From: Candidatus Latescibacterota bacterium
GTDB taxonomy: Bacteria; Latescibacterota; UBA2968; UBA8231
Direction: 5' to 3'
NCBI GenBank assembly: GCA_965217585.1
Contig: OZ244561.1
Coordinates: forward strand, 1,952,001 to 2,016,000
DNA: 64,000 bases
Part shown: piece by piece, positions 5,961-23,537 of the stretch
Layout: each line of letters starts with the position of its first letter
Numbering within the stretch: position 1 is the stretch's first letter
Notes under the pieces: generated by a model
Told to the model about the DNA's origin: nothing
The model's database searches: none
What the model saw: only the letters and a program-made list of their open reading frames with translations
Made by a program: the position numbers and the translations under genes

Positions 5961-5980
5961 TCCCAGCGGAGGATGCGTCC

Positions 5981-7555: not shown

Positions 7556-7658
7556 CAGGGGTTCAGATGTCTAGTACGATTTATATTCGCGGCTGTCTCC
7601 CTCACTACTCGCCAAATATGAGATAGCATAGTACAATAGAAAATAAAAGGAGGCCATC

Positions 7659-7898: not shown

Positions 7899-7903
7899 AT
7901 CTG

Positions 7904-8084
7904 GGAAAACACCCGTGAAAGCTTGGCGTTTCTATGCCTTCGGCGACATGCGGCTCGACGACATTGAGCTGGCGGCCTGCCCACCCGATCACGTGCTAGT
8001 CGAACCGCTAGTAGTCCAACCCAGCGCGACCGAAGCCCAGCTCGCAGAAGCAGCGCAGACGCTGGGTGGCTAATCCCAGCAGAG
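7904..8084 (+). pseudogene. Chimeric remnant: 5' end of the 26748 dehydrogenase fused in frame to the 3' end of the 4872-5960 gene
   Basis: 7904-8045 matches 26737-26878, and 8029-8084 matches 5916-5971. Confidence 0.9.
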
Positions 8085-8103
8085 ACTGACAGGCGAGGTA
8101 GAT

Positions 8104-9054
8104 ATGCTGGACGAACTGCGCAAAATCCGCTACGCCCGCTTCCGCCTAGCAATGACCGCAGCTAGCCAATTGCGGTTGCCTCCCTACAAGGGATCCACCT
8201 TTAGGGGAGCCTTTGGCCATACCTTCAAACAGCTAGTCTGTGTTAAGCGGGATCTGGACTGTTCCACCTGTCTGATCAGCGACCGGTGCGTGTATTACTA
8301 TGTCTTCGAGACCCCGTCCAGTGGTGAGGGAGAGAAGGACAGCCGCGGATATACTTTTGCGCCGCATCCTTTTGTGATTGAACCACCCGAGGAAACGCGG
8401 GAAATCTACGAGCCGGGAGCCGAACTGCGGGTCGGACTGGTTTTGGTGGGGCGTGCCTTGGACTACCTACCCTACTTCATCTACGCCTTTGAGGAAATAG
8501 GGCAGCGAGGGTTAGGGGCCGGGCGCGGCAAAACCGCTTTGCAGCGAGTTATCGCCCTCGGTCCTGAGCCTAGCGACGATAGGTGCATCTATCAGACCGG
8601 TACCGGACAACTGGAGTCGGACTATCCGGTCGGCGTTGGTGCTCCTGACATCGCGGCCGTTGGAACGCGGCTGCGGCTGCGGCTGCACACGCCGCTGCGG
8701 CTCAAAAACGAGGGGCGCTATACTCGCCAGCTTGACTTTTCTCTATTGGTGCGATCCTTGTTGCGGCGCGCTTCGGATCTGGCCCGCTTTCACTGCGGGG
8801 CCGAACTGGACCTGGACTACCGGCAGTGGATTAAGCGGGCAGAGGGGGTATCGGCGGTGGCAGCGACACTGCGCTGGCACGACTGGGAGCGGTATTCGCA
8901 GCGGCAGGATCGGAGAATGAAGTTAGGTGGCTTGGTCGGCGAAGTGGAGTTCGCTGGCGAGTGGCAACCCTTCATGCCGCTGTTGCGGCTGGGCGCGGAT
9001 CTGCACGTGGGTAAGGGGACAGGTTTTGGGCTGGGACGCTACGAGATTTTGTAA
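8104..9054 (+). CDS. cas6: CRISPR pre-crRNA endoribonuclease Cas6
   Basis: YKGSTFRGAFG, Cys cluster, PHPFVIEP, DWERYSQRQ and C-terminal G-rich loop HVGKGTGFGLGRY. Confidence 0.95.
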   Translation: MLDELRKIRYARFRLAMTAASQLRLPPYKGSTFRGAFGHTFKQLVCVKRDLDCSTCLISDRCVYYYVFETPSSGEGEKDSRGYTFAPHPFVIEPPEETREIYEPGAELRVGLVLVGRALDYLPYFIYAFEEIGQRGLGAGRGKTALQRVIALGPEPSDDRCIYQTGTGQLESDYPVGVGAPDIAAVGTRLRLRLHTPLRLKNEGRYTRQLDFSLLVRSLLRRASDLARFHCGAELDLDYRQWIKRAEGVSAVAATLRWHDWERYSQRQDRRMKLGGLVGEVEFAGEWQPFMPLLRLGADLHVGKGTGFGLGRYEIL

Positions 9055-9071
9055 AGGAGCAGGATGAAGAC

Positions 9072-10775
9072 ATGCAACACAAAGAAGACATGCAACACAA
9101 ACTAATCGCTGTGATCGGCAACACACCGCAAGTTATGACAGAAACTTTCTGGGCATTGCGTGTCCAGCGCCATGCGCCCATCGACGAAGTGTTTGTGATG
9201 ACGACAACCATGGGCAAAGAAACCTGTCAGCAACGCCTCTTGGACGAAGGCCGGTTTGCAAAGATGTTGTCGGACTACGATATCGACCTCAATACGGTCG
9301 AGTTCGACGCCGATCATATCCTTGTATTTGAAGATGCCAAGGGCAATAATTTGGATGACATCCGAACCTCAGAAGAGAATCGTTTAGCCCGAGATCAAAT
9401 TTTCAACAAAATTGAAGAGTGGACAAGAGATCCTAACGTCGCTTTGCATTGTTCTCTAGCGGGCGGGCGAAAGTCAATGGGTTTTATACTGGGTGCGGCT
9501 ATTCACTTTTTCGGTCGGCCGCAAGACCGGCTCTATCACGTTTTGGTTTCCGTGCCTGAGATAGAACGAAGCGATGCGTCCTATTATTATCCACCAAAGA
9601 AGCCAGAACCTATTGTTGTCTTTAATCGCAGCACGGGCCGAGAGGAGCCTCTGGTTGTCAGGGGTCGGGAGGTCATGAGCGATGCTGTGAGCATTGAGTT
9701 GGCTGAGGTGCCATTTTGTCGACTGCGCGATGTGGTACAATTTGTGGCCCCCGGACAATATACCGAAGACACGCTGAGCCTGACACAGCAAGCTTTAAAT
9801 AATTACGCAAAGCAGATGCAGGAGCAGTATATGACGCAAATCGCGTCAGGCGCAGAAGATCGGTTTCCAGAAATTATTGGTCAGAGTAGCGGTATTTTGG
9901 GTGTTAAGGATAAGATCAAACTATACGCGCCTTATGATCGTTCGGTGTTGATTACAGGTCCTACCGGGTCTGGCAAAGAACTGGTTGCTGAGGCGCTGCA
10001 CAAAGCAAATGAGAGGTCGGAAGTATATATCTCCCAAAATTGCGCGACGCTGGGAGATTTGGCGGAGAGTCAATTGTTTGGTCATGAAAAGGGGGCATTT
10101 ACGGACGCTAAAGAGGAGCATCGAGGGCTCTTCGAACAAGCGGATGGAGGCACGCTATTTCTCGATGAAATCAATTCGCTTCGATCCGATGTGCAGGCGA
10201 TGCTTTTGCGGGTTCTGGAAGACGGGAAGATACGGCGAATGAAAAGCGAGAAAGATATATCAGTGAAGGTACGTGTTGTTGCCGCGACTAATGAAGACCT
10301 AGATGCAAAGGAGAGCACGTTTCGCCGCGATCTCAGAAGTCGTTTTTCTTTTGAGATTGCGTTGCCAGCGCTCAAGGACCAGCGGGAAGATATTCCATTG
10401 CTTGCCCATCACTTTTTGAAAGCTTTTTCAGACGAAGAGGGAAAGTCTTTTGCGGGTTTTACGGACGAAGCTATGTGTGCGCTGCAAGCCTATGATTGGC
10501 CCCGCAATATCCGACAGTTAAAGTCTGCTATCGAAAATGCAGCTATTCTGACGCCAGAGAATCAATTGATTGTACCCGATGTTTTATTTGATCAAGAGGG
10601 TTCTGATACATTTCATGGCACGTTTAAAGAGGGCATGACGCAGATTGCAAGAAAGAGAATTCAAGACGCGCTGGCACAAACGGGGGGCAATATTACACAA
10701 GCCGCAAAGATTCTTGGTGCTAATCGGTCAACGCTGAGCAAAATAATAAAAAAATATAGGTTGAAAGAGTCGTAA
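9072..10775 (+). CDS. CARF (Cas_NE0113/Csx14/Crn1-like) domain fused to sigma54-dependent AAA+ activator and Fis-type HTH
   Basis: N-terminus GNTPQVMTETFWAL, DDIRTSEEN, SLAGGRKSMG, DRLYHVLV; then GPTGSGKE (Walker A), ESQLFGHEKGAFTDA, LFLDEI (Walker B), VAATN, WPRNIRQL; C-terminus GNITQAAKILGANRSTL. Confidence 0.92.
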   Translation: MQHKEDMQHKLIAVIGNTPQVMTETFWALRVQRHAPIDEVFVMTTTMGKETCQQRLLDEGRFAKMLSDYDIDLNTVEFDADHILVFEDAKGNNLDDIRTSEENRLARDQIFNKIEEWTRDPNVALHCSLAGGRKSMGFILGAAIHFFGRPQDRLYHVLVSVPEIERSDASYYYPPKKPEPIVVFNRSTGREEPLVVRGREVMSDAVSIELAEVPFCRLRDVVQFVAPGQYTEDTLSLTQQALNNYAKQMQEQYMTQIASGAEDRFPEIIGQSSGILGVKDKIKLYAPYDRSVLITGPTGSGKELVAEALHKANERSEVYISQNCATLGDLAESQLFGHEKGAFTDAKEEHRGLFEQADGGTLFLDEINSLRSDVQAMLLRVLEDGKIRRMKSEKDISVKVRVVAATNEDLDAKESTFRRDLRSRFSFEIALPALKDQREDIPLLAHHFLKAFSDEEGKSFAGFTDEAMCALQAYDWPRNIRQLKSAIENAAILTPENQLIVPDVLFDQEGSDTFHGTFKEGMTQIARKRIQDALAQTGGNITQAAKILGANRSTLSKIIKKYRLKES

Positions 10776-10792
10776 ACGTCGTGTGGGGAGAG

Positions 10793-10829
10793 TGTGCAGA
10801 ATTGCACGCACGCCGTGCAATTCTGCACA
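10793..10829. promoter_or_regulatory. Inverted pair of GTGCAGAATTGCAC dyads (putative activator binding sites; also forms a 16-bp stem-loop)
   Basis: GTGCAGAATTGCAC at 10794-10807 and its reverse complement at 10815-10828. Confidence 0.7.
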
Positions 10830-10950
10830 GTGGTCTGATATGCTTTGGCGGCAACCGGATAATTCACTGATTTTTAACAACTTAAGAGAGCGCCGTTTGC
10901 CGAGTTAGGCCGAAAATCGCAAAAAGTGCCCGAACTATTGCCATAACAGC

Positions 10951-10964
10951 GTGCAGAATTGCAC
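10951..10964. promoter_or_regulatory. Third identical GTGCAGAATTGCAC dyad (putative UAS)
   Basis: Exact 14-bp copy about 90 bp upstream of the -24 element. Confidence 0.7.
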
Positions 10965-11053
10965 GACTGGACATGTTGTCGTCCATCTCCTGTTTTCAAA
11001 AAATATTACATAACCTATTGTTTTTATTTATTTTTTGAGAATAACAGAAGGTT

Positions 11054-11069
11054 TGGCACGCAGATTGCA
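11054..11069 (+). promoter_or_regulatory. Sigma54 (RpoN) -24/-12 promoter
   Basis: TGGCACG-CAGA-TTGCA matches consensus TGGCACG-N4-TTGCW; preceded by an AT-rich IHF-like tract (TAACCTATTGTTTTTA) and followed by AAGGAGG and ATG 11102. Confidence 0.9.
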
Positions 11070-11101
11070 TATAAAGAACCAAACCTTAAAGGAGGAACAG
11101 C

Positions 11102-11452
11102 ATGAACACTATAATCAATCAAGGGGATGAGCAATATTATTCTCAGGGCGGCTTCTGGAATAAGTTGCGCAACTTCGCGCGTACCGCGGGTCGGGAAGTC
11201 GTCGAGAATGCCCTGTCGCTCTACTACACCGCACAGGCCCCTGAAACACCGGCCTGGGCCAAGACGATTATCTATGGGGTACTGGGATACTTCATTCTGC
11301 CGGTCGATGCAATTCCCGACCTAATCCCAGTCGTCGGCTTCAGCGACGATTTGGCTGCGTTGGTCGCTGCACTCGCTACCGTGGGGATCCATGTGACGCC
11401 TGAGATTAAAAACCGCGCCAAGAAGAAAGCAGCCGAGTGGTTTGGAGATTAA
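11102..11452 (+). CDS. YkvA/DUF1232 family small membrane protein
   Basis: FWNKL, TPAWAK and LGYFILPVDAIPDLIPVVGFSDD. Confidence 0.9.
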   Translation: MNTIINQGDEQYYSQGGFWNKLRNFARTAGREVVENALSLYYTAQAPETPAWAKTIIYGVLGYFILPVDAIPDLIPVVGFSDDLAALVAALATVGIHVTPEIKNRAKKKAAEWFGD

Positions 11453-11525
11453 TGGATAATCACATCCGAGTCGAGCCGACGGCAAAGGCCGTCTCCGCCG
11501 CGATGTTAGAAGGGGAGTATCTATA

Positions 11526-12155
11526 ATGAACAGAGAATTATCAGAAGGCAAGATGGTGCCCGTATTGAATTGGGCTTATGATAAAGCGGTCAATGGTGTT
11601 GCCGGCTTAGATTCTGCCGGGGAGCTTGCAGAGAGCTATATGAGCAGGGGAGGCTCACGAGTCGATCAAGTCAATTCACTTATACGGTGGCAGAATACTA
11701 AGGCTGGAACCTCCGGCTTCGTGACTGGGTTCGGTGGCTTATTAACTATGCCGGTCACAGTCCCTGCTAGTATTTCGAGCGTACTGTACATCCAAGTGAG
11801 AATGATTGCTGCTATTGCGCATATAGGTAGTCATGACTTAACAGATGATCGTGTTAAAACACTTGTGTATGTCTGCTTAACGGGAAACGCGGCCAGAGAG
11901 GTTCTCAAAGACGTTGGGGTTGTTATTGGTACAAAGCTTACAACAAACGCAATTAAGCGTATTTCAGGGAGAACACTAGCTGCAATCAATCGAAAAGTAG
12001 GATTTCGGTTGTTTACTAAGTTTGGCGAAAAAGGTGCTATCAATTTAGGTAAAGCAGTCCCGTTTGTAGGTGCGGTAATAGGAGCTACTGTTGACTCTGT
12101 CTCCACAAATACTATCGGAAATGTTGCGAGGGACACGTTTGTCACCTTGAAATGA
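11526..12155 (+). CDS. EcsC family protein
   Basis: SGFVTGFGGLLTMPVTVPA, QVRMIAAIA, INRKVGFRLFTKFG and KAVPFVGAVIG. Confidence 0.8.
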   Translation: MNRELSEGKMVPVLNWAYDKAVNGVAGLDSAGELAESYMSRGGSRVDQVNSLIRWQNTKAGTSGFVTGFGGLLTMPVTVPASISSVLYIQVRMIAAIAHIGSHDLTDDRVKTLVYVCLTGNAAREVLKDVGVVIGTKLTTNAIKRISGRTLAAINRKVGFRLFTKFGEKGAINLGKAVPFVGAVIGATVDSVSTNTIGNVARDTFVTLK

Positions 12156-12176
12156 GCAATAGAAAAGGAGAATAAA

Positions 12177-14804
12177 ATGGAAACGGGCAAGATCAAAAAG
12201 TGGATCGAGGATAAAGGCTACGGGTTCATTGTGAATGATCTTGAAGAAGATGTCTTCTTTCACATCAGCGGCAGTCAAGCCTTAAAGGGCAAGGAAGAAT
12301 CTCTGGTCGAGGGAGCAGTCGTTGTTTTCGACAAACGGCCCTCCCCGAGACACGCAGGCCGGTACGAGGCAAAGAATGTCCGTTTACAAGACCACATAGT
12401 TTCTTCCACAGCGCAAGAAGCCGTAGAGTCCAGTCCGTCAAGCGCCGAAACACACGACCACTTTCACAATCCATATACCTTCGTCCCTTCTCCGCCGCGT
12501 CAGGATGCAATAAAAACTGGCGGATTTGCAGGCGATTTTGATCCGTTGGAATGTGGCCGGGGCCTCAGCCATGCATCTCTAAAGCCTGACCTGTGGACAG
12601 GGTACCTGCCCATCAAGCTGACCACCGTCACACCCTTGGTATTGCCCAAAACTGATGGCAAAGAACGTTCGTCAACTGAGCACCATACTTATGATGTACT
12701 CAACCATTTGCCGGAGTCGTCCGTGCGCGGCATGCTGCGCAGCACATACGAGGTAGTGACAAACTCGCGCTATAGTTGTTTTAGGAACGACGACCGACTG
12801 GCCTATCGCATGGAAACTAGGGAAGCTCTGAAGCTCATTCCAGCGGTTATCGAAAATGGCAAAGGGGCTGGGGAATTGGTGGCGCGTTTGTATACTGGAA
12901 CCAGCCATGCCACGGCTCAAAAGCCTAATGGACACGGAGAAAAAGGTGCAATGTATGCAGCAATGCTGACACGCTATCACAAGAATTCAAATCTGAATTC
13001 GGAGTGTGTAGGGGGGTATGATCCTCGGACTGGGGACGAAGTTTGGGCGGAGATCGAGCTTTGTCAGCACCGGCGAGGCTACCGGTTCTGGAAGGCAATC
13101 AGAGTTTGGCCAAAGAGCGGGCATCCCAAAGAACCATCGACTACAGGAAAAATCGTCGAAGGGCGCGTTTTGGTCACCAATCAAAACATGGGCAACAAAC
13201 ATGATGAGCGGATTTTCTTCAATCCCAAACCAGATACGTTTGAAGTGACCGACCATCTCAAAGAGTCTTGGCGCATGCGCATCAAAAGCTATAGGGAAGC
13301 ACACCCTGAGAACGATATTTTTAAGCGGCCACGAGGTGCGAAGCCCTGGGGGAAAATCGGCAATAACCCTGGAGAAACAGCATGGTCGCCGCATTTATAT
13401 CAGGATGGTAAACACCGGGACCGCTGGGGCAGAAACACACATGACGCAATGGAATTGCAAGCGGGAGATCTGGTGTATGCCCGCGGCAAATTCGATACAA
13501 AGGGGAATATCACGGATATTGAAGATCTTTTCCCAGTCATGATCTCCCGTGAGTTGTATGACAATAGCCCCAAAGACCTTCTCGATTCCTCACTAAACGA
13601 TTCCTTACTAAAGCCAGCGAGTAAGAGAAGTGAGTTGTCTCCCGCGGATCGTCTATTCGGGTGGGTACCTCAGAAATCCGGTAGCGACCAAGGCTACAGG
13701 GGTCGCATACGAGTCGTCTGTGAGGATGGCGCACGACCAGAAATCATCGAGGACTTTGCTGGTAAGTCCTTGCCCCTTGCTATCCTGGGACAACCGAAAC
13801 CCGCACAGGGCCGTTTTTATGTAGCCAAGGATGATCAAGGCAGGCCGCAAGAAGATGGCCTTGACAAGAAACAGGCAGGCTATAGTAAAGGCAAGGGCCT
13901 ACGAGGCCGTAAGCAGTACTGGCATCATAAAGGACTGGAAGCCGATAAGGCATCGGACTATTGGAAGCCGTCAGTTGAGGACCGAACACAGCAACAAAGT
14001 AATGGTCGGCACCAAGAATATCGCCGTCCTGATGGAGAGTCTCAAACCGATCCTCAAAATCGCAGCATTCGAGGGTGGATCAAGCCCAATACCGTTTTTA
14101 AGGTATCCCTGTATGTGCAAAATCTGCAAACTGAAGAGATTGGCGCATTGCTTTGGCTACTGTCGCTTCCCGAAGGCCATTATTTTCGGCTAGGCTACGG
14201 CAAGCCATTGGGTTTTGGGAGTGTGAGGATGGAAGTAGATGAGGAGCGATGCGTAAATGGGGGTCTGCCACTTGGCACCGGAGAAGAGTGGAAAAACTAC
14301 TATGCGGCTTTCGATGCATCCTCCCCGGCAACGCTGGATGAAGGGCAACGAAACAACTGTATTCAGAAATTTAAGGCCAGTATGGTGACCGCGTACAAGC
14401 CTCTTCCAGCTAATGACGAAGCCATCAATAGGAGTGAAGGCCAGGAAGCATCTGATAAGTCCCACCGAATTACGTCCTTTGCTGATCTCAAACATGTTCC
14501 TATCAAGACAATTCCGACCACTCCAGAAGATCGGAAGAAGTCCGAGGAACAGCGCTTTGACGAATTGCCTTTTATCAGTGGATTTCTGCAAGTCCTAAGC
14601 GGTCCGAAAAATGACGCACCCATTCACTATCCACGTCTGGAACGCAAACCGAACCCAGAGGGTGAGAATTTCAAATGGTTTGTCGATAATGAGAAAGGGC
14701 AAGGTAAGAAGGTCACGCTTCCAGCGGCTACGGACGAGAAGGGGTTACCTTATCAGCCATCAAGCGGTGCCGTTCACAGTTCACGCACAAAGAGGAGACG
14801 ATAA
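12177..14804 (+). CDS. cas7: Type III-D Cas7-insertion RAMP (TIGR03986-like) with N-terminal cold-shock domain
   Basis: CSD: GKIKKWIEDKGYGFI...DVFFHIS; RAMP: FHNPYTFVP, LPESSVRGMLRSTYE, PADRLFGWV, LGQPKP, LRGRKQYWH and LGYGKPLGFGS. Confidence 0.9.
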   Translation: METGKIKKWIEDKGYGFIVNDLEEDVFFHISGSQALKGKEESLVEGAVVVFDKRPSPRHAGRYEAKNVRLQDHIVSSTAQEAVESSPSSAETHDHFHNPYTFVPSPPRQDAIKTGGFAGDFDPLECGRGLSHASLKPDLWTGYLPIKLTTVTPLVLPKTDGKERSSTEHHTYDVLNHLPESSVRGMLRSTYEVVTNSRYSCFRNDDRLAYRMETREALKLIPAVIENGKGAGELVARLYTGTSHATAQKPNGHGEKGAMYAAMLTRYHKNSNLNSECVGGYDPRTGDEVWAEIELCQHRRGYRFWKAIRVWPKSGHPKEPSTTGKIVEGRVLVTNQNMGNKHDERIFFNPKPDTFEVTDHLKESWRMRIKSYREAHPENDIFKRPRGAKPWGKIGNNPGETAWSPHLYQDGKHRDRWGRNTHDAMELQAGDLVYARGKFDTKGNITDIEDLFPVMISRELYDNSPKDLLDSSLNDSLLKPASKRSELSPADRLFGWVPQKSGSDQGYRGRIRVVCEDGARPEIIEDFAGKSLPLAILGQPKPAQGRFYVAKDDQGRPQEDGLDKKQAGYSKGKGLRGRKQYWHHKGLEADKASDYWKPSVEDRTQQQSNGRHQEYRRPDGESQTDPQNRSIRGWIKPNTVFKVSLYVQNLQTEEIGALLWLLSLPEGHYFRLGYGKPLGFGSVRMEVDEERCVNGGLPLGTGEEWKNYYAAFDASSPATLDEGQRNNCIQKFKASMVTAYKPLPANDEAINRSEGQEASDKSHRITSFADLKHVPIKTIPTTPEDRKKSEEQRFDELPFISGFLQVLSGPKNDAPIHYPRLERKPNPEGENFKWFVDNEKGQGKKVTLPAATDEKGLPYQPSSGAVHSSRTKRRR

Positions 14805-14806
14805 CC

Positions 14807-15898
14807 ATGGGAACACAACTCATTCTTACAATTGGAACTAATCCACTACCAGTGTGGGTGGCGTGGCATCATTTGAAAGAGAAACTGCAAGAACCGATCA
14901 AGGTTCGATTTGTGCATACTGCAGGCACGGTGGACGAAACAGACCGACTACAGAAGTATTGTCAAGGTGCGTCTCTCCTTGATCCCATTCAAACGTCGGC
15001 GGGTAATCCAGGGACTGTACGCGGTGATATCAGGCATATATTAAAAGATTTATCAGCTGAGACAACTGATCTTCACGTCCACTACACCGGCGGCACTAAG
15101 GTGATGGGCGTTGAAACGGTTTCCGCTATTGAAGCCCACCTACGAGCGGAGCAGAACATTCGCCTACAAACCTCCTATCTTGATCCACGTGGCGCATCAG
15201 GCCCGATTATCGTAAGTCGGAGCGGTCCTCTCGTAGAGGATACCCGTCGGGGAATTGATCCTTGTCTTAGTCGCATCGCCGAACTCGACGGCTTTACGAT
15301 TGGACCATTTGAATACCGATACTGGGATAGCTCAATTAAAGACCATAAGGTGCAAGAATGCTCGGCCCCCGGAACACCTAGTCAAGATCAACTGGACGAG
15401 GGCCGAGAGGCACTTAAGGCCAGACGTATCGATGATCCCGATCTTCTCGAGTACGGCGCGTATGCTGCCTTTGAGGAAGCTCTGGAGAGAATTTCCGCGA
15501 GCAATTTGGATCGAAAAAACTATGAAATTTTTCACAGAGTGTACGTCCGGCGGGCTGGGAAAAAAGACCCGAATGTTAAGCCTTTTGAACTCGATGTAGT
15601 TGCGGTGCTGGGGTATCAAATTGTCGTTGTTTCGTGTACCGTTGATTCTGTTCACGACCGAATCAAACAAAAAGGTATGGAGGCTATTCTACGGGCACGG
15701 CAACTCGGTGGTGATGAAGCGCGGGCCATTGTTTTTTGTAGCGCTCACCCGAATGACGCTAAACTCATCGAAGATGAGCTAATGGATGAAATGGGTAGTG
15801 CAAGTGAGCCCCTGCAAGTCTGGGGACGTAATAAGAAGAGAGGGCTACCCGGTGAGTTTTATCGATACCTGCGCAATGACCTGCATTGGATGTTATAA
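14807..15898 (+). CDS. CARF + PD-(D/E)XK nuclease, Can1/Can2(Card1)-like cOA effector
   Basis: LTIGTNPLPVWV and HYTGGTKVM (CARF); FELDVVAVLGYQIVVVSCT...ARQLGGDEAR (nuclease). Confidence 0.82.
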   Translation: MGTQLILTIGTNPLPVWVAWHHLKEKLQEPIKVRFVHTAGTVDETDRLQKYCQGASLLDPIQTSAGNPGTVRGDIRHILKDLSAETTDLHVHYTGGTKVMGVETVSAIEAHLRAEQNIRLQTSYLDPRGASGPIIVSRSGPLVEDTRRGIDPCLSRIAELDGFTIGPFEYRYWDSSIKDHKVQECSAPGTPSQDQLDEGREALKARRIDDPDLLEYGAYAAFEEALERISASNLDRKNYEIFHRVYVRRAGKKDPNVKPFELDVVAVLGYQIVVVSCTVDSVHDRIKQKGMEAILRARQLGGDEARAIVFCSAHPNDAKLIEDELMDEMGSASEPLQVWGRNKKRGLPGEFYRYLRNDLHWML

Positions 15899-15913
15899 GA
15901 TAAGGATATAATT

Positions 15914-17557
15914 ATGTCAACTTCTCTTTATACTGGTCAATGTATCGCGGTCTTCGGTACTGCGAGTCTTCAGCGATACATCTTTCAGAGCAATCGCCTG
16001 AAAGAGAACCTCGGCGCGTCCTATCTGGTAAAATACTGGCTCGAAGATGGCTTGCCTGAGTCTATAAAGCAAGCTGGCCACACAATTGATACGACCACAT
16101 GGGATACGTACCAAGAGAATCCTTCGATGTCTCCACCTGAAAAGCCGGTAGACATGACGAAAAGTGCTAATCTCATCTATGTCGGTGGGGGGAATGCCGC
16201 GCTGTTATGCAAAACCCAAGAGATTGCTAAAGATGCTGTCAAATCATGGAGCTGCGAGCTACTCAAAAAAGCTCCTGGACTCCGGGTGGCCGTTGGATAT
16301 GCAGATGTTGAGAACTCTCTGGCTGTGGCATATAGAGACGCATTGGATGATCTCGCCAGTTGCGAGGAGGCACTGCCTTTTGGAGACACCCTGTACGGCT
16401 TACCCGTTGTTCGCACCTGTACCACGACGGGACTCCCAGCAAGCGTGCCCAGCGAGGAAAACAATGCGGAGTGGATATCACTGTCTGCGATGAGCAAGCG
16501 GAATCAAGTCGGCTCCGAACGCGAGCCCGGTGTTGCCCAAAAGGATATCAGGCGGAAATTCAAACCAGTTCTAAAAGAAGACCAATACTTTGCCATAGAA
16601 CTTAACAAATTAGGAGGCCGTAAAGGAGAATCGCATATCGCTGTAGTACATGCCGACGGCAATGGAATGGGCAAACATCTCATAGATGTAGTAAACAGTG
16701 CAGGAGAAGATGCGGACTTCCTCCATCACATCCGGGCGTTTTCTGCCTCTGTGTCGCTTCTGTCCCAGAATGCCCTAAAGGAGACTTTGCAATATCTACG
16801 AGAAGCTTTGCCGAGTCTGAAAGATGATTTGTCGCTGGAAGATGAAAAAATCTTTCCTCTGCGTCCCATCGTGTATGGCGGCGATGATTTGACGTTTGTC
16901 TGCGATGGTCGCTTGGGGCTCGATCTGGCTGCCTTCTATTTGAAGGAGTTTTCCAAGGGCACGATCAATGTCTGCGGTGAGGACAAGCCCGTTGATGCAT
17001 GTGCTGGGGTAGCCATTGTGCCTACGAAATTTCCCTTTGCTCGCGCGTATCATTTTGCCGAAGAACTATGCGGATTGACCAAGTCACACCTTCGCCAAGA
17101 GAATTTAACCGGCAGTTGGCTGGATTTTCAGATCATTCAGGAAGGTTCCACTCGTTCCGTTTCCGCACTCAGAGCCACACAGTATCGCAGCCTCGAAGGG
17201 CAAACGCTCCATCAGCGCCCGTATCAGGTGCCAGAAAAATGGGACGATTTTGTCTCGATTTTGAATAAATTCCAATCCCAACAATGGCCCCGCAGCCGCG
17301 CCAAAGGTCTTTTGCAGGCTCTAACTCAAGGACCGGTCGCAACCCAACGATTTATTGAAGGCACACAATGGCGTGATATAAATTTGCCATACATAGAGGG
17401 CTTGGATGCGAATGCACAAAAAATGGGTTGGACGGGTGGGGATTCCTCGAATAGCAGCACGCCGTATTTCGACCCGCTCGAAGCACTTGATTTCTATTTA
17501 GAAGTGAAGCCAGCAACAGATGGTGAGAGTGCAGGGAAGGAGATAACGAATGACTGA
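15914..17557 (+). CDS. cas10: Cas10, HD-less, with intact cyclase palm
   Basis: QRYIFQSNRLKENLGAS, VVHADGNGMG, PIVYGGDD and ACAGVAIV..KFPFARAY; 547 aa with no N-terminal HD domain. Confidence 0.95.
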   Translation: MSTSLYTGQCIAVFGTASLQRYIFQSNRLKENLGASYLVKYWLEDGLPESIKQAGHTIDTTTWDTYQENPSMSPPEKPVDMTKSANLIYVGGGNAALLCKTQEIAKDAVKSWSCELLKKAPGLRVAVGYADVENSLAVAYRDALDDLASCEEALPFGDTLYGLPVVRTCTTTGLPASVPSEENNAEWISLSAMSKRNQVGSEREPGVAQKDIRRKFKPVLKEDQYFAIELNKLGGRKGESHIAVVHADGNGMGKHLIDVVNSAGEDADFLHHIRAFSASVSLLSQNALKETLQYLREALPSLKDDLSLEDEKIFPLRPIVYGGDDLTFVCDGRLGLDLAAFYLKEFSKGTINVCGEDKPVDACAGVAIVPTKFPFARAYHFAEELCGLTKSHLRQENLTGSWLDFQIIQEGSTRSVSALRATQYRSLEGQTLHQRPYQVPEKWDDFVSILNKFQSQQWPRSRAKGLLQALTQGPVATQRFIEGTQWRDINLPYIEGLDANAQKMGWTGGDSSNSSTPYFDPLEALDFYLEVKPATDGESAGKEITND

Positions 17558-19955
17558 GTATGTTTTACAGATCAAGCTGCAATCGCCGCTAACCTCTGCC
17601 GCTGGTGAGGGACGTGTAGGTGTGGTTGACCGCGACGTAGCCTTTGACGATCTGGGGTTACCCATTCTTCCCGGTAGGCGACTCAAAGGGCTGTGGCGCG
17701 AAGCCTATCGCGATGTTGCCGATGCGTGGGAGTTGTGCGGTGAATCTCCAATACCAGTAGAGCTTATTTTCGGCAAGTCAGGACAGAGATCCGGCGCTGG
17801 GGATGCTTGCATGTTTATTGCCAATGCAGAGTTGCAAGAGACGCCGTCTTTAAGAGAATGGTTGAAATATTTACAAAATAAAAAACAACTTCATCCTGAC
17901 GATGTGGTGCAACACTTTGCCACTGTGCGCGCCCAGACCGCAATCGACCGCAGGACTGGCGCAGCACTTAAGAATACGCTCCGCCTCACCCGTACCTTAA
18001 AAGCTGGCCTAGTATTTCAGGCACGAGTGCGCTTCTTTGAGTCTCCAGACGACGTGCTGCTCAATGCTCTATCTCTGGGGACTGCGGCTCTGCAACACAT
18101 GGGAACGGCGCGAACCCGCGGTCTCGGAAAGATCTCCTGTCGTTTGCTGGCACACGATGAGAACGGGCAATGCCGAGACTTGACAGACGAAGCCCTGAGC
18201 AACGACGCGCTTCCATCAATTGCCGAAACCAATCTGGCGCAACAAGCACAAACTTCAAAGGGGCAGACGACTACTGCACCCCCCTCAAGTCACCTGGTTC
18301 CCACGCATTTGTTGCGCTATCGGATCACGTTGACAACTCCAGTAGTTATCCCAATGGCGGATGGTGACCCGAATACGGTTATGACCCGGCAGGACGTACC
18401 CGGAAGCAATATATGGGGAGCTGCTGCTTGGCACTATCTTAGCCAATCGAATCGCACTCCTGAAGATGATGAGTTTCGCCACGCCTTCCTCGATGGAGGC
18501 TTGCGGTTCTTGACTGCTTACTTGGAAGCGGACGACTCCGAGGCATCCAATGAAATACCGCAACGCATGATCCCCATTCCCCACTCCATCCGCAAGTTCA
18601 AGGAGGGCGAAGAACCGGTTGATTTTGTGGAACCATCGCCAAGAGGGGAGCCAACAAAGCGCCTCGACCGCAGCTATGCCAGAATCAGTGAAGGGAGTTT
18701 GGAGACGCAGGCTGTCAAGACGGAGTTGAACTACCACCACGCCCGTGCCAAAAACCGCCGCATAGGCCGTGCTCTTGGTGCGGAGGCCACAGAAGGCGCA
18801 GATAGCGGTGCCCTCTTTACGTATGAAGCTATCCAGGCTGGACAGTCGTTTCAAGGTGCTGTCCTAGGTTCTGAGGACGATCTGAAAAATCTGAAAAATT
18901 GGTTACAAGAGGGAGAACTAAGAATCGGAAGGTCTCGCAGCGCGCAGTACGGCGAGGCGGAATTTGAATGGCTTGATGATGCGCCACAGGAATTGAATGG
19001 GCGCGTTGAGTGGGACGGATTCGTTGAGCAGCAGATACATGATGTCCCCGATCCTAGCAACCATCTGATCATTACCACCTTATCCTCTTTGTTGACTGTC
19101 AACGATTACGGACACCCGGACGCGCATTTCCCAAAGGGCGAATTAGCCGAAGCCTTGGGCCTAGAGGCTTCGGAACTAAAACTATGCAGTAGTTATACCC
19201 GCACTGAGGTGATTGGAGGATATAATTCCCATCTGCGCCTGCCTCGGCAGCAATGGCCTGCTATCACCCCCGGTAGTGTTTTTGTGTTTAAGGCTGAGAA
19301 AACTCTCGATCAGGAGTGTCTCTTGAAATTAGAGCACAATGGCCTGGGACTACGTAAGGGAGAGGGGTATGGCCGCATTGCGGTCAATCGACAGGGCAAT
19401 CTCCAGTTGTGGGAAGAAACCCGACTCGACGATCCCGAGAGCCAACATCCTCCCATCGGTCCCGATGCCTCTGAGGTCCCTGAGGCTATTCAAAACATTC
19501 TACTGGATGTGGTGAGATCGCGTTGCCTAGCGGATATGCAACAGCGTGCTATGACCTGCGCTGAGCGGACACAGAAGGTCCCGAGCAATGCCCTTCTCGG
19601 ACGGCTGCGTTTGTTTTTTCAACAAAAGTCTCCTGCCGAAAGTTTGGAGAAGCTACGCGATCCTGCAAAGGAGCAGCTAACGAACTATCAGGTTGACATG
19701 CGTGATGTCGGCCTGCTGAATTTGCCGACCCGAATGACTCTGTATGACTTGTTCAAAAAGGCCTGGACTGAAAAAGAGTCCTTAACTCGGGAATTGATTG
19801 AACGTCGTGTCGAAGATATTGTCGAAGACCGATACGCCGATATGCGCCAAACCATGATTGACAAACTGGTCTCGGATGACAGCGCGAAGATGTGTACAGT
19901 ATTTCTCGATCATCTGCTTACAGCACTGCGCCGTAATAAGTCAAGGGATAAATAA
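17550..19955 (+). CDS. csx10: Cas7-Cas5-Cas11 fusion (Csx10-like, III-Dv architecture)
   Basis: GLPILPGRRLKGL and GTARTRGLG (Cas7); VPGSNIWGA, IGRSRSAQYG and GLRKGEGYG (Cas5); helical C-terminus PSNALLGRLR (Cas11-like). Confidence 0.85.
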   Translation: MTEYVLQIKLQSPLTSAAGEGRVGVVDRDVAFDDLGLPILPGRRLKGLWREAYRDVADAWELCGESPIPVELIFGKSGQRSGAGDACMFIANAELQETPSLREWLKYLQNKKQLHPDDVVQHFATVRAQTAIDRRTGAALKNTLRLTRTLKAGLVFQARVRFFESPDDVLLNALSLGTAALQHMGTARTRGLGKISCRLLAHDENGQCRDLTDEALSNDALPSIAETNLAQQAQTSKGQTTTAPPSSHLVPTHLLRYRITLTTPVVIPMADGDPNTVMTRQDVPGSNIWGAAAWHYLSQSNRTPEDDEFRHAFLDGGLRFLTAYLEADDSEASNEIPQRMIPIPHSIRKFKEGEEPVDFVEPSPRGEPTKRLDRSYARISEGSLETQAVKTELNYHHARAKNRRIGRALGAEATEGADSGALFTYEAIQAGQSFQGAVLGSEDDLKNLKNWLQEGELRIGRSRSAQYGEAEFEWLDDAPQELNGRVEWDGFVEQQIHDVPDPSNHLIITTLSSLLTVNDYGHPDAHFPKGELAEALGLEASELKLCSSYTRTEVIGGYNSHLRLPRQQWPAITPGSVFVFKAEKTLDQECLLKLEHNGLGLRKGEGYGRIAVNRQGNLQLWEETRLDDPESQHPPIGPDASEVPEAIQNILLDVVRSRCLADMQQRAMTCAERTQKVPSNALLGRLRLFFQQKSPAESLEKLRDPAKEQLTNYQVDMRDVGLLNLPTRMTLYDLFKKAWTEKESLTRELIERRVEDIVEDRYADMRQTMIDKLVSDDSAKMCTVFLDHLLTALRRNKSRDK

Positions 19956-19966
19956 GGACTAATAGC

Positions 19967-21456
19967 ATGGCAAATGTGAAGACAGAAACATCTGAAGCTA
20001 AGGATGCCATTGTGCGCCGTCTATATGCTCAAGGCCGATGGAAGCTGGACAGTGTAGCACACTTTGGTGGCGACGAAACCGGCATAGCGGATATGTGCCT
20101 CCTGCGGGATGCAGATGATAGTCCCTTTATTCCGGCCGCATCTATCGCTGGCGCGGCGCGGAGTTTTCTGGCCCAGCAGAGTTTACCCTGGGCAGAGTAT
20201 CGGGCGGACTTACCGAAGAACCGATAGGACTCAAGCGGTTCTTCGGAGGAGGAGATAAACCCGACACAAATAAACCCGGTACTGGTACCATGAGTGCCTT
20301 GATCGTTGCCGATGCTGCCTGTGTCAGTGAGCAGGCAACGACAGCAATCCGCGATGGCGTACGCGTGGATGCCTGCTCGGGTTCTGCCGCTGAGGGGAAA
20401 AAATTCGATGTGGAAGTTGTCGAACGCGGGACCGAATTTGAGTTGTGTCTGGAATGCGTTATTCGTGATGGAGACGACAACAGTGAATTGGAAAGGTTGT
20501 TCTTAGCCCTATTGCATGGGTTCCAAGCAGGCGATATCCGATTGGGCGCACGTACCCGCCGGGGCTATGGACGCGGCAAGGTCGCGTCCTGGGAGATACG
20601 CAATTTGCAGATGAACGATCCAGAGGATGTCATGGCCTGGCTACGCGATAGGGTCTGGTGTCGTCCCGCGAGTAATTTGACGCCCCATCCATTGCCATCC
20701 GACCAACGACAATACTTTCGCCTTGAAGCGGATTTTATCCTGCGAACATCCCTGTTAATCCGCAGTTCACCCTCTGATCCAGAAGCTCCAGACATGGTTC
20801 ATCTACACTCTGCTGGAGAGCCTGTCGTCCCCGGCACATCCTTTGCCGGTGCATTCCGACATCGTGCTTCTCTGATCGCGGACACGATTGATTGGCCCAA
20901 GGACGCGGTGAGTGAACTATTCGGCCCTGTCCATGAAAAAGAAGCCAAAGATTCGCAAGAAGGTTTGTGGGCAAGCCGGGTATGGATTGAGGAACGTCTG
21001 GTGAAAAATGTGGAATCGCGGTGGCAGAATCGCGTTGCCATTGATCGGTTTACCGGGGGCAGCTTGCAGAGTGCCTTGTTTAACGAAAAACCGGTTTTCC
21101 CGCAAGAATCTACGTCGCACCTCAAGTTAAGACTGACGTTAGAAGAGCCGGACGACGCGGAAATCGGCTTGTTGTTCTTAACCCTGCGCGACTTCTGGCA
21201 TGGACATGCTGCCCTAGGCGGAGAAACGAGCAACGGACGCGGCACTCTCCAAGGCGTCAAAGCTGGGTTGCAACTGAAGCGGCGCGAATCGTCAGAGGCT
21301 GAGTGGGAGTTTTCGCAGGTTGACAGCGGCATGACTCTTGTCGGATGTAGTGGTGATGCTTCATTCCTCAAATGTTGTGTCGAAAAAGCCCAATCCCCTC
21401 CTGATCGTCCCGATGGATCACGGCGACCCGAAGAAAAGAGGCCCACCGATGCCTAA
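19967..21456 (+). pseudogene. cas7: Cas7-Cas7 (Csm3-like) fusion interrupted by a 1-nt frameshift near 20205-20212
   Basis: ORF 19967-20227 (PFIPAASIAGAARS) continues in the -1 frame as GLTEEPIGLKRFFGG into ORF 20290-21456 (GARTRRGYG, VPGTSFAGAFR, VAIDRFTGG, LGGETSNGRG). Confidence 0.8.
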
Positions 21457-22009
21457 CGAAACGCATATAGAACTCAGTGAAGCCTTGATCTGTTCACATC
21501 TGTCCCATGTGACTACTGATCCAACGGCGTGGATCTTGTTACAGGAGCCCGGCTTTATCGGCTTTGGTGTGGTGCAATCGGATAAAATCTACTGGCCTCC
21601 AGACGTGCAACCGGATTGGGCACGGGTCAGCGACCTTCGTTTATTCGGCGAGGATGGCGAATGGCATGTCTGGCCTCATTGGGATGGAACTTGGCAGAGC
21701 CGTAGGCTGGAATTGCAAAAATTGACCGATACTCTGACGGAGCACCATGCCTTGTGGGGGACCCAAGTGGAAGAACCCGGACCACCGCCTTGGATAAAGT
21801 TGACAGAAGATCGCGGGGCGGAGATTTGGCTGCCGCTGGCAGAATTGGAATTGACAAAAGGGGACTTGCCGCTGCGCCTAGAACTCAAACAGGTGATCGA
21901 CTATGATGACAAAAGCGGCCTAGCTGGTATCGTCGATGCCGGCTTGGTGGCTCTGGTTCGCAGAAGTGGTGAAAAGATAGGAATACCTAGGGCGGTTGCC
22001 CAAAGCTAA
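21449..22009 (+). CDS. csx19: Type III-D protein Csx19
   Basis: Position after cas7-cas7; DLRLFGEDGEWHVW, LWGT and IDYD motifs; start set at ATG 21449, overlapping the upstream stop. Confidence 0.8.
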   Translation: MPNETHIELSEALICSHLSHVTTDPTAWILLQEPGFIGFGVVQSDKIYWPPDVQPDWARVSDLRLFGEDGEWHVWPHWDGTWQSRRLELQKLTDTLTEHHALWGTQVEEPGPPPWIKLTEDRGAEIWLPLAELELTKGDLPLRLELKQVIDYDDKSGLAGIVDAGLVALVRRSGEKIGIPRAVAQS

Positions 22010-22012
22010 TTC

Positions 22013-23044
22013 ATGCCTACCCTGTACGTCACAGAACCCAGATCGGTCGTCCGGCGTTCGGTCGGCTCCGTCGTGGTAACGCTCAACGAAGACCCCGACG
22101 GGCCGGGGCCGCTGCCCGAACGCCAGCGACGCTTGCTCGAAGTCGAGCCGCATCGGCTGGAACTGATCGCCTTGGTAGGTCGCGTTCACATTACCGCCGA
22201 TGCGCTCCAACTCTGCTTGGAGCAGGGCATTGCGGTCGCTTGGTTGCGGGCGAATGGGAACTTTATGGGCCGCCTTGTGCCGGAGTTGTCGCGCACGGCA
22301 GATCTGCGGTTGGCGCAATTTCGCATGGCCGACGACGAGCCGCAGGCGCTTGCACTGGCTCAGACCTTTGTCGCAGCCAAGCTCCACAATGCGGTTGGTC
22401 TGCTAACGGCTTTGCGATCCAACCGCCGCGCTCAACCCGCTTTGGGGCGGGCCATCGGCGAACTCAAGGCCATGGCCGATACCGTATCGAAAGCGACTAG
22501 CCGGGAGGTGCTGCTGGGCTTTGAGGGTGATGCGGCCCGCCGCTACTTTGCTGGGCTACGGCTCGGTTTCACTGGGGCGATTGGCTTTGCCGGCCGCGCT
22601 CGTCGGCCACCGCCGGACCCGGCCAATGCCTTGCTGTCGTTTGGCTATGTGTTGCTGGCTAATGTCTTAGCGAGTTTGCTGGAGGCCTGCGGCTTCGATC
22701 CCTACCTCGGCTTTATGCACACGGTCCGCTCTGGTCGGCCCAGCTTGGCACTCGACCTTTTGGAGGAATTGCGGCATCCGGTCGTAGATCGCTTTGTGCT
22801 GCGGGTGTGCAATCGGGGACAATTGCGTCCCGAGCATTTTGAGGCTGATGACGAGCGGGGTGGTGTGCGCCTTACGCGTGCGGGGATGCGGATTTTCTTT
22901 CGCACTTGGGAAGCCTTTATGGACGCCCCGCTGCCGGGGATTGGAGAAGAGATGTCACCAGAAGAATTGCTTCGCCGTCAGGTTGATCGTCTAGCGGCCC
23001 ACGTGCGAGATCGTGCACCGTACCAACCCTTGCTTCTACGCTGA
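22013..23044 (+). CDS. cas1: CRISPR integrase Cas1
   Basis: TLYVTE, GFEGDAARRYF, RRPPPDPANALLSFGY, DPYLGFMH and SLALDLLEELR; no RT domain. Confidence 0.97.
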   Translation: MPTLYVTEPRSVVRRSVGSVVVTLNEDPDGPGPLPERQRRLLEVEPHRLELIALVGRVHITADALQLCLEQGIAVAWLRANGNFMGRLVPELSRTADLRLAQFRMADDEPQALALAQTFVAAKLHNAVGLLTALRSNRRAQPALGRAIGELKAMADTVSKATSREVLLGFEGDAARRYFAGLRLGFTGAIGFAGRARRPPPDPANALLSFGYVLLANVLASLLEACGFDPYLGFMHTVRSGRPSLALDLLEELRHPVVDRFVLRVCNRGQLRPEHFEADDERGGVRLTRAGMRIFFRTWEAFMDAPLPGIGEEMSPEELLRRQVDRLAAHVRDRAPYQPLLLR

Positions 23045-23050
23045 GGAGGC

Positions 23051-23344
23051 TTGCCCATGTCCCGCTTTGTTGTGTGCTACGATATAGCCGACAATAAACG
23101 TCGCTACAAGGTAGCCGCCTGCCTAGATGGGTATGGAGACCGCGTACAGGGCAGCGTATTCGAGTTGCGGGTCGAGCGCATCCTTCTCGATCGGTGCTTA
23201 GCCGAGGTATCCGGCCTGATCGATGCGGCTGAGGACAGTGTGGTCGTCTATCGCCTTTGCGCGGCCTGCGAGAAAGAGCGGGTTTATTTGGGTGTGGGCG
23301 AACAGGTTGCCCATATTGGCGAGGAAGATGTATTTATCGCATGA
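23051..23344 (+). CDS. cas2: CRISPR-associated Cas2
   Basis: VVCYDIADNKRR, YGDRVQGSVFE and DSVVVYRLCAAC. Confidence 0.97.
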   Translation: MPMSRFVVCYDIADNKRRYKVAACLDGYGDRVQGSVFELRVERILLDRCLAEVSGLIDAAEDSVVVYRLCAACEKERVYLGVGEQVAHIGEEDVFIA

Positions 23345-23537
23345 ACAGTCGTAACCTCGGATAGCCCGTCTATTGCTCTGGAGTTACGAATTTGGCTAAC
23401 CGATTGAAATTACTGCAATTCGGCATTACCTGCCGGATCGGAGACAGCCGTGATAGGTGTCGTTGGCCGCTCTGGCCATTGGGTTACGAAAAGTGTTCTC
23501 GCAACCTATTGCAAGACAAGGAGAACTATGGCATACG
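23345..23537 (+). promoter_or_regulatory. CRISPR leader
   Basis: Non-coding region between cas2 and repeat 1; its 3' part is duplicated at ~25080-25133. Confidence 0.75.

Follow-up and report, generated by a model that had tools for sequence, protein, structure and literature searches.

A CARF-sigma-54 activator fusion and its conserved promoter cassette at type III CRISPR-Cas loci of Latescibacterota: a candidate messenger-gated switch

How the expression of CRISPR-Cas systems of type III is tuned to infection is poorly understood, and to our knowledge the transcriptional outputs of their messenger pathway are Csa3 and protease-released sigma factors. The question is posed in a new form by a CRISPR-Cas locus in the closed genome (7,323,734 bp) of a Candidatus Latescibacterota bacterium (assembly GCA_965217585.1), in which the gene next to cas6 encodes a CARF domain fused to a sigma-54 transcription activator. 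The locus occupies positions 8104-24575, on the plus strand, of the 64,000-nucleotide stretch analysed here (contig OZ244561.1, positions 1,952,001 to 2,016,000), which is called the window; coordinates refer to it unless another locus or the genome is named. Does this protein couple CRISPR signalling to transcription of the locus? A preliminary description, made from the sequence, had proposed that it drives its own type III-D cas operon in a positive feedback loop. We describe a real, conserved and apparently undescribed regulatory module, by which this immune system probably switches on its own genes upon infection.

The fusion protein, its promoter and the related loci

The preliminary description had read a single open reading frame (ORF), 9072-10775, as a fusion of CARF, sigma-54 AAA+ and Fis-type helix-turn-helix (HTH) parts, and profile searches bore this out. 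Pfam Cas_NE0113 (PF09623) matched residues 18-222 (115.5 bits, cut-off 23), Sigma54_activat (PF00158) residues 268-425 (172.1 bits, cut-off 20.2), AAA_lid_14 residues 436-503 and HTH_8 residues 527-562 (40 bits). The NCBIfam model TIGR02584 scored 169.7 bits (cut-off 80.65). The translation contains GNTPQVMTET, SLAGGRKSMG, GPTGSGKE, LFLDEI and GAFTDA, and the Walker motifs are intact.

Known CARF regulators did not account for the protein. Its identification as RtcR was ruled out: the NCBIfam RtcR model NF038308 gave 236 bits against a cut-off of 650 and covered residues 225-500 only; the PADLOC CARF_AAA_HTH matches were RtcR models only, RtcR_PspF2 being confined to residues 242-564 (AAA+ and HTH); the Pfam RtcR domain had no match in the protein; and no rtcB/rtcA operon adjoins the gene, which is followed by DUF1232, EcsC-like and cas genes. 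The CARF domain fell in PADLOC's CARF5 (CARF5--CARF, residues 7-241, E 1.7e-68), a clade shared with Cad1; the PADLOC models carry the clade names of the CARF classification and were used as a stand-in for it. None of the PADLOC CARF5 models spans the whole fusion. Since the RtcR models reach the AAA+/HTH part only while the CARF domain falls in CARF5, the fusion is not RtcR. Csa3 (CARF plus winged HTH, no ATPase) was also ruled out, as the fusion has an AAA+ module and a Fis-type HTH. By its profile matches the protein joins a CARF domain of the CRISPR type to an NtrC-type module.

Motifs and predicted fold support a CARF domain of the CRISPR messenger-binding kind, not of the RtcR kind. The basic GGRK motif after strand 4 was invariant in all 15 aligned CARF domains, and most RtcR CARF domains are described as being without that basic charge (Makarova 2014, PMC4012209, in part; here and below, "in part" marks sources available as a portion of their text, to which the statement is limited). 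When an AlphaFold2 model of the domain (pLDDT 83.8) was compared with solved structures by Foldseek, the closest folds were those of two Crn1 ring nucleases, Sis0455 and Sso2081, and of the Cad1 CARF domain, with probability 1.00 to 7z55, 7ygl and 9c69; the Cad1 domain has been solved with cyclic tetra-adenylate (cA4) and cyclic hexa-adenylate (cA6). The NE0113/Csx14/Crn1-like character assigned earlier stands for the family profiles (Cas_NE0113/TIGR02584) and for the nearest fold, but PADLOC groups the domain with Cad1. Crn1 has been assigned to the families CARF7 and CARF_m13 (PMC12409355), of which CARF_m13 matched the domain weakly. A symmetric CARF homodimer was predicted through the SLAGGRK segment with a score of 0.63 (best control 0.00); three runs shared at least 90% of the contacts, and the partner pLDDT was 90. 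On solved structures the mark was reached by 20 of 30 one-chain pairs and by 1 of 23 single chains, counts that hold roughly here because a custom alignment was used, and the pass may be memory because Crn1 dimers are already solved.

The -24/-12 promoter and the repeated dyads upstream of it, which the preliminary description had placed about 280 bp behind the fusion gene, were both found in the 326-bp intergenic region (Table 1). The promoter, TGGCACGCAGATTGCA, is followed by AGGAGG and by the ATG of the DUF1232 gene at 11102. With both strands of the genome counted, the strict pattern TGGCAC-N5-TTGC[AT] has 11 matches, of which this is one. The 14-mer GTGCAGAATTGCAC of the upstream activating sequences (UAS) occurs three times in the 7.32-Mb genome, each time upstream of this promoter, and UAS dyads 1 and 2 together form a 35-bp palindrome. 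The dyad core recurs in nearly identical form at genome position 2,630,281, 1.3 kb to the downstream side of another strict promoter match, which was judged to be a coincidence. The AT-rich spacer between the dyads and the promoter may be a DNA-bending site of the integration host factor type; in the window it contains only a weak hairpin (10968-10985). The genome encodes RpoN (Sigma54_DBD 205.6 bits, 491-aa frame).

A CARF-domain search of the 168 species genomes of the phylum gave a match in 20; 16 loci were examined, 11 of them with a full-length fusion, and these with the window make up the 12 loci compared below. When at least 10 of 11 consensus positions were demanded, a sigma-54 promoter was present 137-280 bp after the activator stop codon in all 12. 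Altogether 19 promoters stood in the expected places, that is before cas6, before DUF1232 or, in two loci, before a CRISPR repeat, as against four matches of the same quality elsewhere in these loci. TTGGCAC and TTGC are invariant in the 19 aligned promoters. All 11 related loci have cas6 adjoining the activator gene. In the six loci with the order activator-cas6-DUF1232 the first promoter precedes cas6, and in five of the six the second precedes DUF1232. The sigma factor itself is widespread: rpoN was present in 162 of the 168 genomes, including all 12 relatives' genomes with the fusion.

The dyads accompany the promoters. With at most one mismatch allowed, the regions upstream of the 19 promoters (300 bp each, 5,700 bp in all) held 37 dyads and the other 220,768 bp held 10, an enrichment of about 140-fold. 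At least one was present at 16 promoters, and the remaining three have two-mismatch variants. The dyads sit at fixed places, approximately -112/-133, -113/-183/-202 or -103/-240/-260, and one between -103 and -113 accompanies 14 of the 19 promoters. In three loci (L024, L026, L030) the -24 element borders directly on a hairpin with a T-run that resembles a terminator, so that the promoter is insulated there from read-through of the activator transcript. The regulator-promoter unit is strongly supported, as well as sequence comparison allows.

The genes behind the cassette vary. cas6 had been placed outside the regulated unit, which is correct for the window; in 8 of the 11 relatives, however, it is downstream of a sigma-54 promoter and so appears to lie within the unit. 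Moreover, in L030 (19200-19430 of that locus) and L033 (18660-18880) a third cassette with two dyads stands directly 5' of the CRISPR repeat of a mini-array, which suggests activator-dependent transcription of CRISPR RNA (crRNA). The proposed link with type III-D held for the window, for L024 (Cas10, Csx10, Csx7, Csx19 and a TM1812-family protein) and for L026 and L028, which have the window's III-D variant, but the cassette is not specific to this type: it also fronts Csm1-5 and a CARF protein in L029 (type III-A) and Cmr1-3 and a CARF protein in L030 (type III-B). A further CARF protein is encoded in each of these III-A, III-B, III-D and window modules. GGDD was intact in all 10 of the neighbouring Cas10 proteins examined, three of which have an HD domain. 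In L031, from the same genus as the window, about 12 kb of non-cas genes (5070-17085 of the oriented locus) separate the promoter from csm1; they encode two FGE-sulfatase-like proteins, an ankyrin protein, a Ser/Thr kinase, an FHA protein, a ClpB-like AAA+ protein and a radical-SAM activase.

The activators form two clades. In the CARF domain they share 66-83% identity with the window protein, but the AAA+ modules are just 39-42% identical between the clades. Clade B (L028-L033 and L038) has the linker VPRLRAENKRLRETS, an AAA+ module about 40% identical to the window's and CARF domains 66-72% identical. Two of its members, L031 and L038, carry HTH tails of the clade A type. HTH tail and promoter layout track each other and not the AAA+ clade, L031 being like the window and L038 like L025. 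This independence suggests recombination within the activator gene, which would make the activator genes mosaic. Co-variation of HTH and operator was uninformative, because the TGCA-N4-TGCA core is common to all loci and the HTH-coding end is physically linked to the intergenic region.

Beyond these loci, both Cas_NE0113 and Sigma54_activat were matched in 107 of 120 relatives among the matches listed from a protein collection at 90% identity. Among the best 80 CARF loci in contigs of one genome per species, 11 were fusions, all from Latescibacterota. Of the other 69, one was cut off just after the CARF domain and the rest had no sigma-54 AAA+ module and were at most 46% identical; these non-fusion relatives came from Nitrospirota, Thermodesulfobacteriota and other phyla. 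The CARF profile matched 3,576 representatives at 50% identity; ten of the best 150 were at least 500 aa long, and four of these ten were fusions, one of which (P0184) has an overall identity of 32% and a GAFTGA loop of canonical form. Another distant fusion is P0106, and a metagenome scan with it as query returned 80 loci that all matched the AAA+ part alone (query start at residue 172 or later). The fusion further shows that evolution reached the CARF-AAA-HTH plan at least two times, starting from different CARF clades.

Proposed control and the alternatives

We propose that the fusion is a bacterial enhancer-binding protein (bEBP) with a CRISPR-type CARF sensor, and that a messenger gates its activation of the 11054 promoter; the probability of this reading is put at roughly 0.6. 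The Fis-type HTH would bind the GTGCA-N4-TGCAC dyads 100-260 bp upstream of the promoter. When crRNA meets target RNA, the Cas10 cyclase would make a messenger, most likely cA4, that is bound by the CARF dimer. Binding would release the AAA+ module or promote assembly of its ring, and ATP hydrolysis would open the sigma-54 closed complex. Transcription would enter the DUF1232 and EcsC-like genes and, in the window, very probably continue into the III-D genes, the gene of the Can2-like nuclease and then cas1 and cas2; in relatives the cassette also stands in front of cas6 and of a CRISPR array. Overall, infection would raise the levels of effectors, Cas proteins and crRNA, possibly within limits set by ligand cleavage in the CARF domain. 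The messenger gating and the positive feedback are plausible; the ligand, the direction of control, the extent of the transcript and the ring-nuclease activity are inferred.

Several observations weigh against messenger-gated activation. The genome contains 22 Sigma54_activat matches, hence about 21 other sigma-54 activators, and the sigma-54 contact loop of the fusion is GAFTDA, departing from GAFTGA. The loop is GAFTGA, GAFTDA, GAFTNA or GAFSGA in clade A and G[AT]YTGQ, with a few GAYSGQ, in clade B; its threonine is retained in most members of the two clades. A different activator could serve the promoter, with the CARF fusion acting elsewhere or being inactive. We consider this extremely unlikely, because the genome has no copy of the dyads outside this site, all 12 loci place the promoter behind the fusion gene although their AAA+ modules fall into two divergent clades, and HTH tail and promoter layout change together.

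The nature of the ligand is also a point of contention. Cyclic oligoadenylate (cOA), probably cA4, made by Cas10 is probably the ligand and activation the response, because the CARF domain keeps the pocket motifs and always accompanies a cyclase-competent Cas10 and a further CARF effector. In the window the latter is a Can2/Card1-like protein, and studied members of that family respond to cA4. A studied III-D2 complex, however, makes S-adenosylmethionine-AMP (SAM-AMP) instead of cOA (PMC13294483, in part), so that cOA as the product of the window Cas10 is what we infer; on the other side, the locus has the Can2-like CARF nuclease, and no CorA was detected among the products of the window gene run by Pfam and NCBIfam profile searches.

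The CARF domain might then sense SAM-AMP, the linear A2>P released by ring or Can2-type nucleases or, as proposed for RtcR, RNA ends bearing a 2',3'-cyclic phosphate. From what is generally known of their families, the locus's own Cas7 and Can2-type nucleases would be expected to leave such cyclic-phosphate ends. RtcR, the one CARF-bEBP that has been studied, responds to tRNA fragments whose end is a 2',3'-cyclic phosphate and binds RtcA and RtcB (PMC7790460 and PMC9650030, both in part). We nevertheless regard another ligand as quite unlikely. The domain is not of the RtcR type in the Pfam, NCBIfam and PADLOC comparisons and keeps GGRK, the nearest solved folds bind cA4 or cA6, and modules of types III-A and III-B, with GGDD Cas10 and CARF effectors, occur with the cassette as well.

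A further difficulty for messenger-gated activation lies in its start. A sigma-54 promoter is usually silent without its activator, and a strict loop of Cas10 and activator cannot start without a basal source. The hairpin in the window spacer being weak, read-through from cas6 and the activator gene could supply basal expression, and a second Cas10 module, in a type I-G locus at 7.13-7.14 Mb of the genome, could supply the first signal. A scan for sigma-70 promoters upstream of cas6 and inside the operon found 7, as compared with 4.5 +/- 2.1 in shuffled sequences, that is, no excess.

The start-up problem would be sidestepped if the control were negative, with the ligand switching the activator off, or with the CARF domain acting mainly as a ring nuclease or messenger sponge beside a constitutive AAA+ module. 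The system would then be on at rest and turned down once signalling has occurred, a negative feedback. NCBIfam names TIGR02584 a ring nuclease. In addition, T18 of the fusion aligns with Ser11 of Crn1 and K134 of its GGRK with Lys106 (in the GGRK of Sis0455), albeit in a weak alignment (phmmer E = 1); Ser11 and Lys106 have been named as key Crn1 residues (PMC10018336, in part). The fusion CARF may cleave its ligand and so limit the response. Negative control as such appears very unlikely: the N-terminal sensors of the bEBPs studied, that of RtcR included, hold the AAA+ module inactive until the signal arrives, and a constitutive activator would render a tight sigma-54 promoter and an insulating terminator pointless.

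The last point concerns the regulated genes. The preliminary description had taken the cas operon as the target; instead, the most constant gene after the promoter is that of the DUF1232 membrane protein, present in 8 of 11 relatives (9 of 12 loci with the window). The promoter does front III-D genes in the window, as claimed, but the first genes behind it are DUF1232 and EcsC-like and not cas genes. In several relatives, furthermore, a gap of 110-820 bp between DUF1232 and the next cas gene holds a conserved short hairpin and a T-rich stretch, and transcription may stop or be attenuated there. The hairpin, GCGTAnCCTATTnCGC, lies 90-200 bp after the DUF1232 stop codon in L024, L026, L030 and L032, where further sequence is conserved as well; the region could serve as an attenuator or a second promoter region, or give rise to a small RNA.

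On these grounds the same activator and promoter might serve a unit of DUF1232 and accessory (EcsC-like) genes, with the cas genes transcribed mainly from other promoters and no feedback. The activator would then be a transcriptional effector arm of the type III signalling pathway, inducing a membrane protein that is possibly growth-arresting or protective, for which the control of a membrane-stress protein by sigma-54 in PspF-pspA is a precedent (PMC4012209, in part). A tblastn search (E 1e-4) found no DUF1232 homologue in the 69 CARF loci without the AAA+ fusion. We hold this restricted unit, with its effector arm, to be unlikely, although it is the alternative to be taken most seriously. 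Within the window the gap from DUF1232 to the EcsC-like gene is just 74 bp and that from the latter to the first cas gene 22 bp, and no terminator was detected on the way, which makes read-through from the 11054 promoter into the cas genes very likely and would entail positive feedback. The tight same-strand run to cas2 noted earlier was confirmed (11102-23344, intergenic gaps of at most 74 bp). In relatives, cas6 and CRISPR arrays have cassettes of their own, and CRISPR parts are therefore targets. The cassette also occurs without DUF1232 within the 20 kb examined in L033, and with other genes at its position in L031.

Metatranscriptome contigs (X20), about 96% identical to the window, cover 11258-11848 and 12074-12770 and thus bridge DUF1232/EcsC and EcsC/Cas7. 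They may derive from a relative or from DNA; such contigs are no proof of transcription, nor their gaps of silence.

A wider reading takes the cOA-gated bEBP as a portable master switch that places cas6 (processing of crRNA), the array (its supply), whole III-A, III-B and III-D interference modules and DUF1232 under infection-induced, all-or-none transcription, possibly self-limiting by ligand cleavage. We offer it tentatively, as somewhat less probable than its converse. In that case CRISPR second messengers would be tied directly to the sigma-54 machinery for the first time, in an immune system largely silent until the first target RNA is sensed. If messenger-gated activation itself is true, CRISPR messengers can drive ATP-dependent promoter opening, an immune locus can be held almost silent and then amplified when needed, CRISPR signalling has a small, inducible DUF1232 membrane protein among its outputs, and the cassette would be a compact messenger-responsive genetic switch of very low background. 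The unit is sharply defined and easily tested, consisting of one protein, a 14-bp operator and a textbook sigma-54 promoter, with ligands that can be purchased.

Gene content of the locus

The features are listed in Table 1 in their order on the DNA. By its genes the window system is a type III-D system with fused subunits (Cas10, Csx10, several Cas7, Csx19). The 18-bp gap between cas6 and the activator gene suggests that the two are probably co-transcribed. The Cas10 had been described as lacking HD and having an intact GGDD, and no HD was found in its first 120 residues; the second CARF nuclease recognized earlier was likewise identified, its structural match 8q3y being a DUF1887 family protein. 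An Rfam scan of window positions 5000-27000 gave no match.

Table 1. Coordinates of the promoter cassette and of the genes of the CRISPR-Cas locus in the window
Feature	Position	Strand	Basis and remarks
cas6	8104..9054	+	Pfam CRISPR_Cas6 76.7 bits
CARF-bEBP fusion	9072..10775	+	567 aa; CARF 9123-9737, sigma-54 AAA+ 9873-10346, AAA lid, Fis-type HTH 10650-10757
UAS dyad 1, GTGCAGAATTGCAC	10794..10807	.	about -260 from promoter; position kept in L031
UAS dyad 2, reverse complement of dyad 1	10815..10828	.	about -239
UAS dyad 3, promoter-proximal, GTGCAGAATTGCAC	10951..10964	.	-103
AT-rich spacer, UAS to promoter	10965..11050	+	sequence conserved across aligned promoter regions
Sigma-54 promoter (-24/-12), TGGCACGCAGATTGCA	11054..11069	+	279 bp after activator stop; perfect TGGCAC-N5-TTGCA
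DUF1232 small membrane protein	11102..11452	+	Pfam DUF1232 49.7 bits; hydrophobic stretch residues 53-102
EcsC-like protein	11526..12155	+	Pfam EcsC; PADLOC candidate defence gene PDC-S29, E 2.4e-87
Cold-shock domain (CSD) fused to multi-Cas7 RAMP (TIGR03986)	12177..14804	+	TIGR03986 289.7 bits (cut-off 161.35); Pfam CSD residues 3-69
Can2/Card1-like effector, CARF + PD-(D/E)xK nuclease	14807..15898	+	PDB 8q3y E 1.5e-23; PADLOC CARF4--CARF_PDDEXK E 1.1e-42
Short Cas10, 547 aa	15914..17557	+	Pfam Cas10-Cmr2_palm2; IVYGGDDLTF, GGDD at residue 322
Cas7-Cas5 (Csx10) fusion	17550..19955	+	RAMPs 69.8 bits; TIGR02674 Csx10 E 5.1e-25, below cut-off
Multi-Cas7 gene	19967..21456	+	RAMP and Csx7 matches; appears as ORFs 19967-20227 and 20290-21456
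Csx19, type III-D signature protein	21449..22009	+	PADLOC Csx19 E 7.9e-18
cas1	22013..23044	+	Pfam Cas_Cas1 287.5 bits
cas2	23051..23344	+	Pfam CRISPR_Cas2 68.8 bits
CRISPR array	23538..24575	+	14 repeats of 37 nt, 13 spacers

The split of the multi-Cas7 gene is probably a one-base homopolymer assembly error, placed at 20201-20204. At the GGG run 20199-20204 all covering contigs of the DNA runs X1, X6 and X9 have one extra G, which fuses both ORFs into a single gene of about 496 aa, and the gene is a single ORF in L026. The CSD RNA-binding domain (12177-12390) is fused to the N-terminus of the TIGR03986 protein, which aligns over its whole length with the proteins of L026 (75% identity) and L028 (86%). 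The EcsC-like gene is strain-variable: contigs of X1 and X6 skip it, joining 11445 to 12171, and its homologue in L024 is placed at the far end of the operon.

Upstream of cas6, contigs of X20 and X1 skip about 543 bp (7556-8098) between it and an AAA-ATPase_like/PDDEXK_9 gene, and L029 and L031 lack this segment too; ORF 7681-7992 (minus strand) in this stretch had no PADLOC match. Paralogous AAA-ATPase_like plus PDDEXK_9 genes flank the CRISPR locus (5681-7555 and 25172-26719), and a 59-nt duplication, 85% identical, brackets the array (23489-23547 and 25086-25144). The second CRISPR-Cas locus of the genome (7,130,000-7,145,000) is of type I-G (Csb1, Csb2, Cas3g, Cas4g/Cas1g) and contains an embedded III-A-like module with a 498-aa Cas10, Csm2, Csm3, Csm4 and a CARF protein. 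The strict sigma-54 promoter pattern had no match near it.

Comparison with known systems

The preliminary description had known of no characterised example, and the literature search agreed: in the searchable literature, which did not extend to the 2020 CARF classification and its supplements, a CRISPR-type CARF domain fused to a sigma-54 activator was not described, the only CARF-AAA-HTH activators there being RtcR and RtcR-like proteins. The searchable surveys of type III accessory genes and ring nucleases (PMC6546367, PMC12409355, PMC12669027) do not mention it either, and among the papers listed in a search for DUF1232 with CRISPR none contained DUF1232. A preprint on Myxococcus Nla28 reports CRISPR-associated targets, but of a different activator. 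As to the complex itself, the fused Cas7 and Cas7-Cas5 proteins of the window resemble the III-D2/Dv layouts (PMC13294483, in part).

The closest relatives in plan are RtcR of E. coli and Salmonella and the RtcR-like proteins, which share the order CARF, NtrC-type sigma-54 AAA+, Fis-type HTH and an adjacent sigma-54 promoter. For RtcR-like proteins encoded beside restriction-modification or CoCoNuT systems, which they are predicted to regulate, feedback via RNA cleavage products has been proposed (PMC4012209, in part; PMC11090510). The differences lie in the sensor, the targets and the expected signal. The fusion CARF is of the CARF5/Cas_NE0113 type with the basic motif, whereas the RtcR domain is divergent; the fusion targets would be CRISPR-Cas and DUF1232 genes and not rtcBA or restriction genes; and its expected ligand is a Cas10 product, that of RtcR being damaged tRNA.

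Csa3 is a CRISPR CARF transcription factor that binds cA4 and is thought to link type III signalling to CRISPR expression (PMC8699464, in part). This protein, from archaea (Sulfolobales), has CARF and winged HTH but neither AAA+ module nor sigma-54, and would work by simple binding, in contrast to ATP-driven promoter opening. The nearest solved folds, those of Crn1/Csx14 (Sso2081, Sis0455) and of the Cad1 CARF domain, have G-x-[ST]-P, GGRK and the dimer arrangement in common with the fusion; Crn1/Csx14 proteins stand alone and the Cad1 domain is fused to a deaminase, none of them being joined to a transcription activator.

Alternative sigma factors serve as the output in two further systems. 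In type III-E, target recognition is reportedly passed on to transcription by a Craspase-Csx30-RpoE route. In the CalpL-CalpT-CalpS system a messenger triggers release of the sigma factor (PMC12751052, in part). In both, unlike in the fusion, a protease frees an extracytoplasmic function (ECF) sigma factor; the route proposed here would instead run through a messenger-gated sigma-54 activator acting at defined local promoters. The PspF-sigma-54-pspA system also resembles the fusion in that a sigma-54 activator induces a membrane-associated protein upon phage or envelope stress (PMC4012209, in part), but PspF lacks a sensor domain and is under the control of PspA, to which DUF1232 is unrelated.

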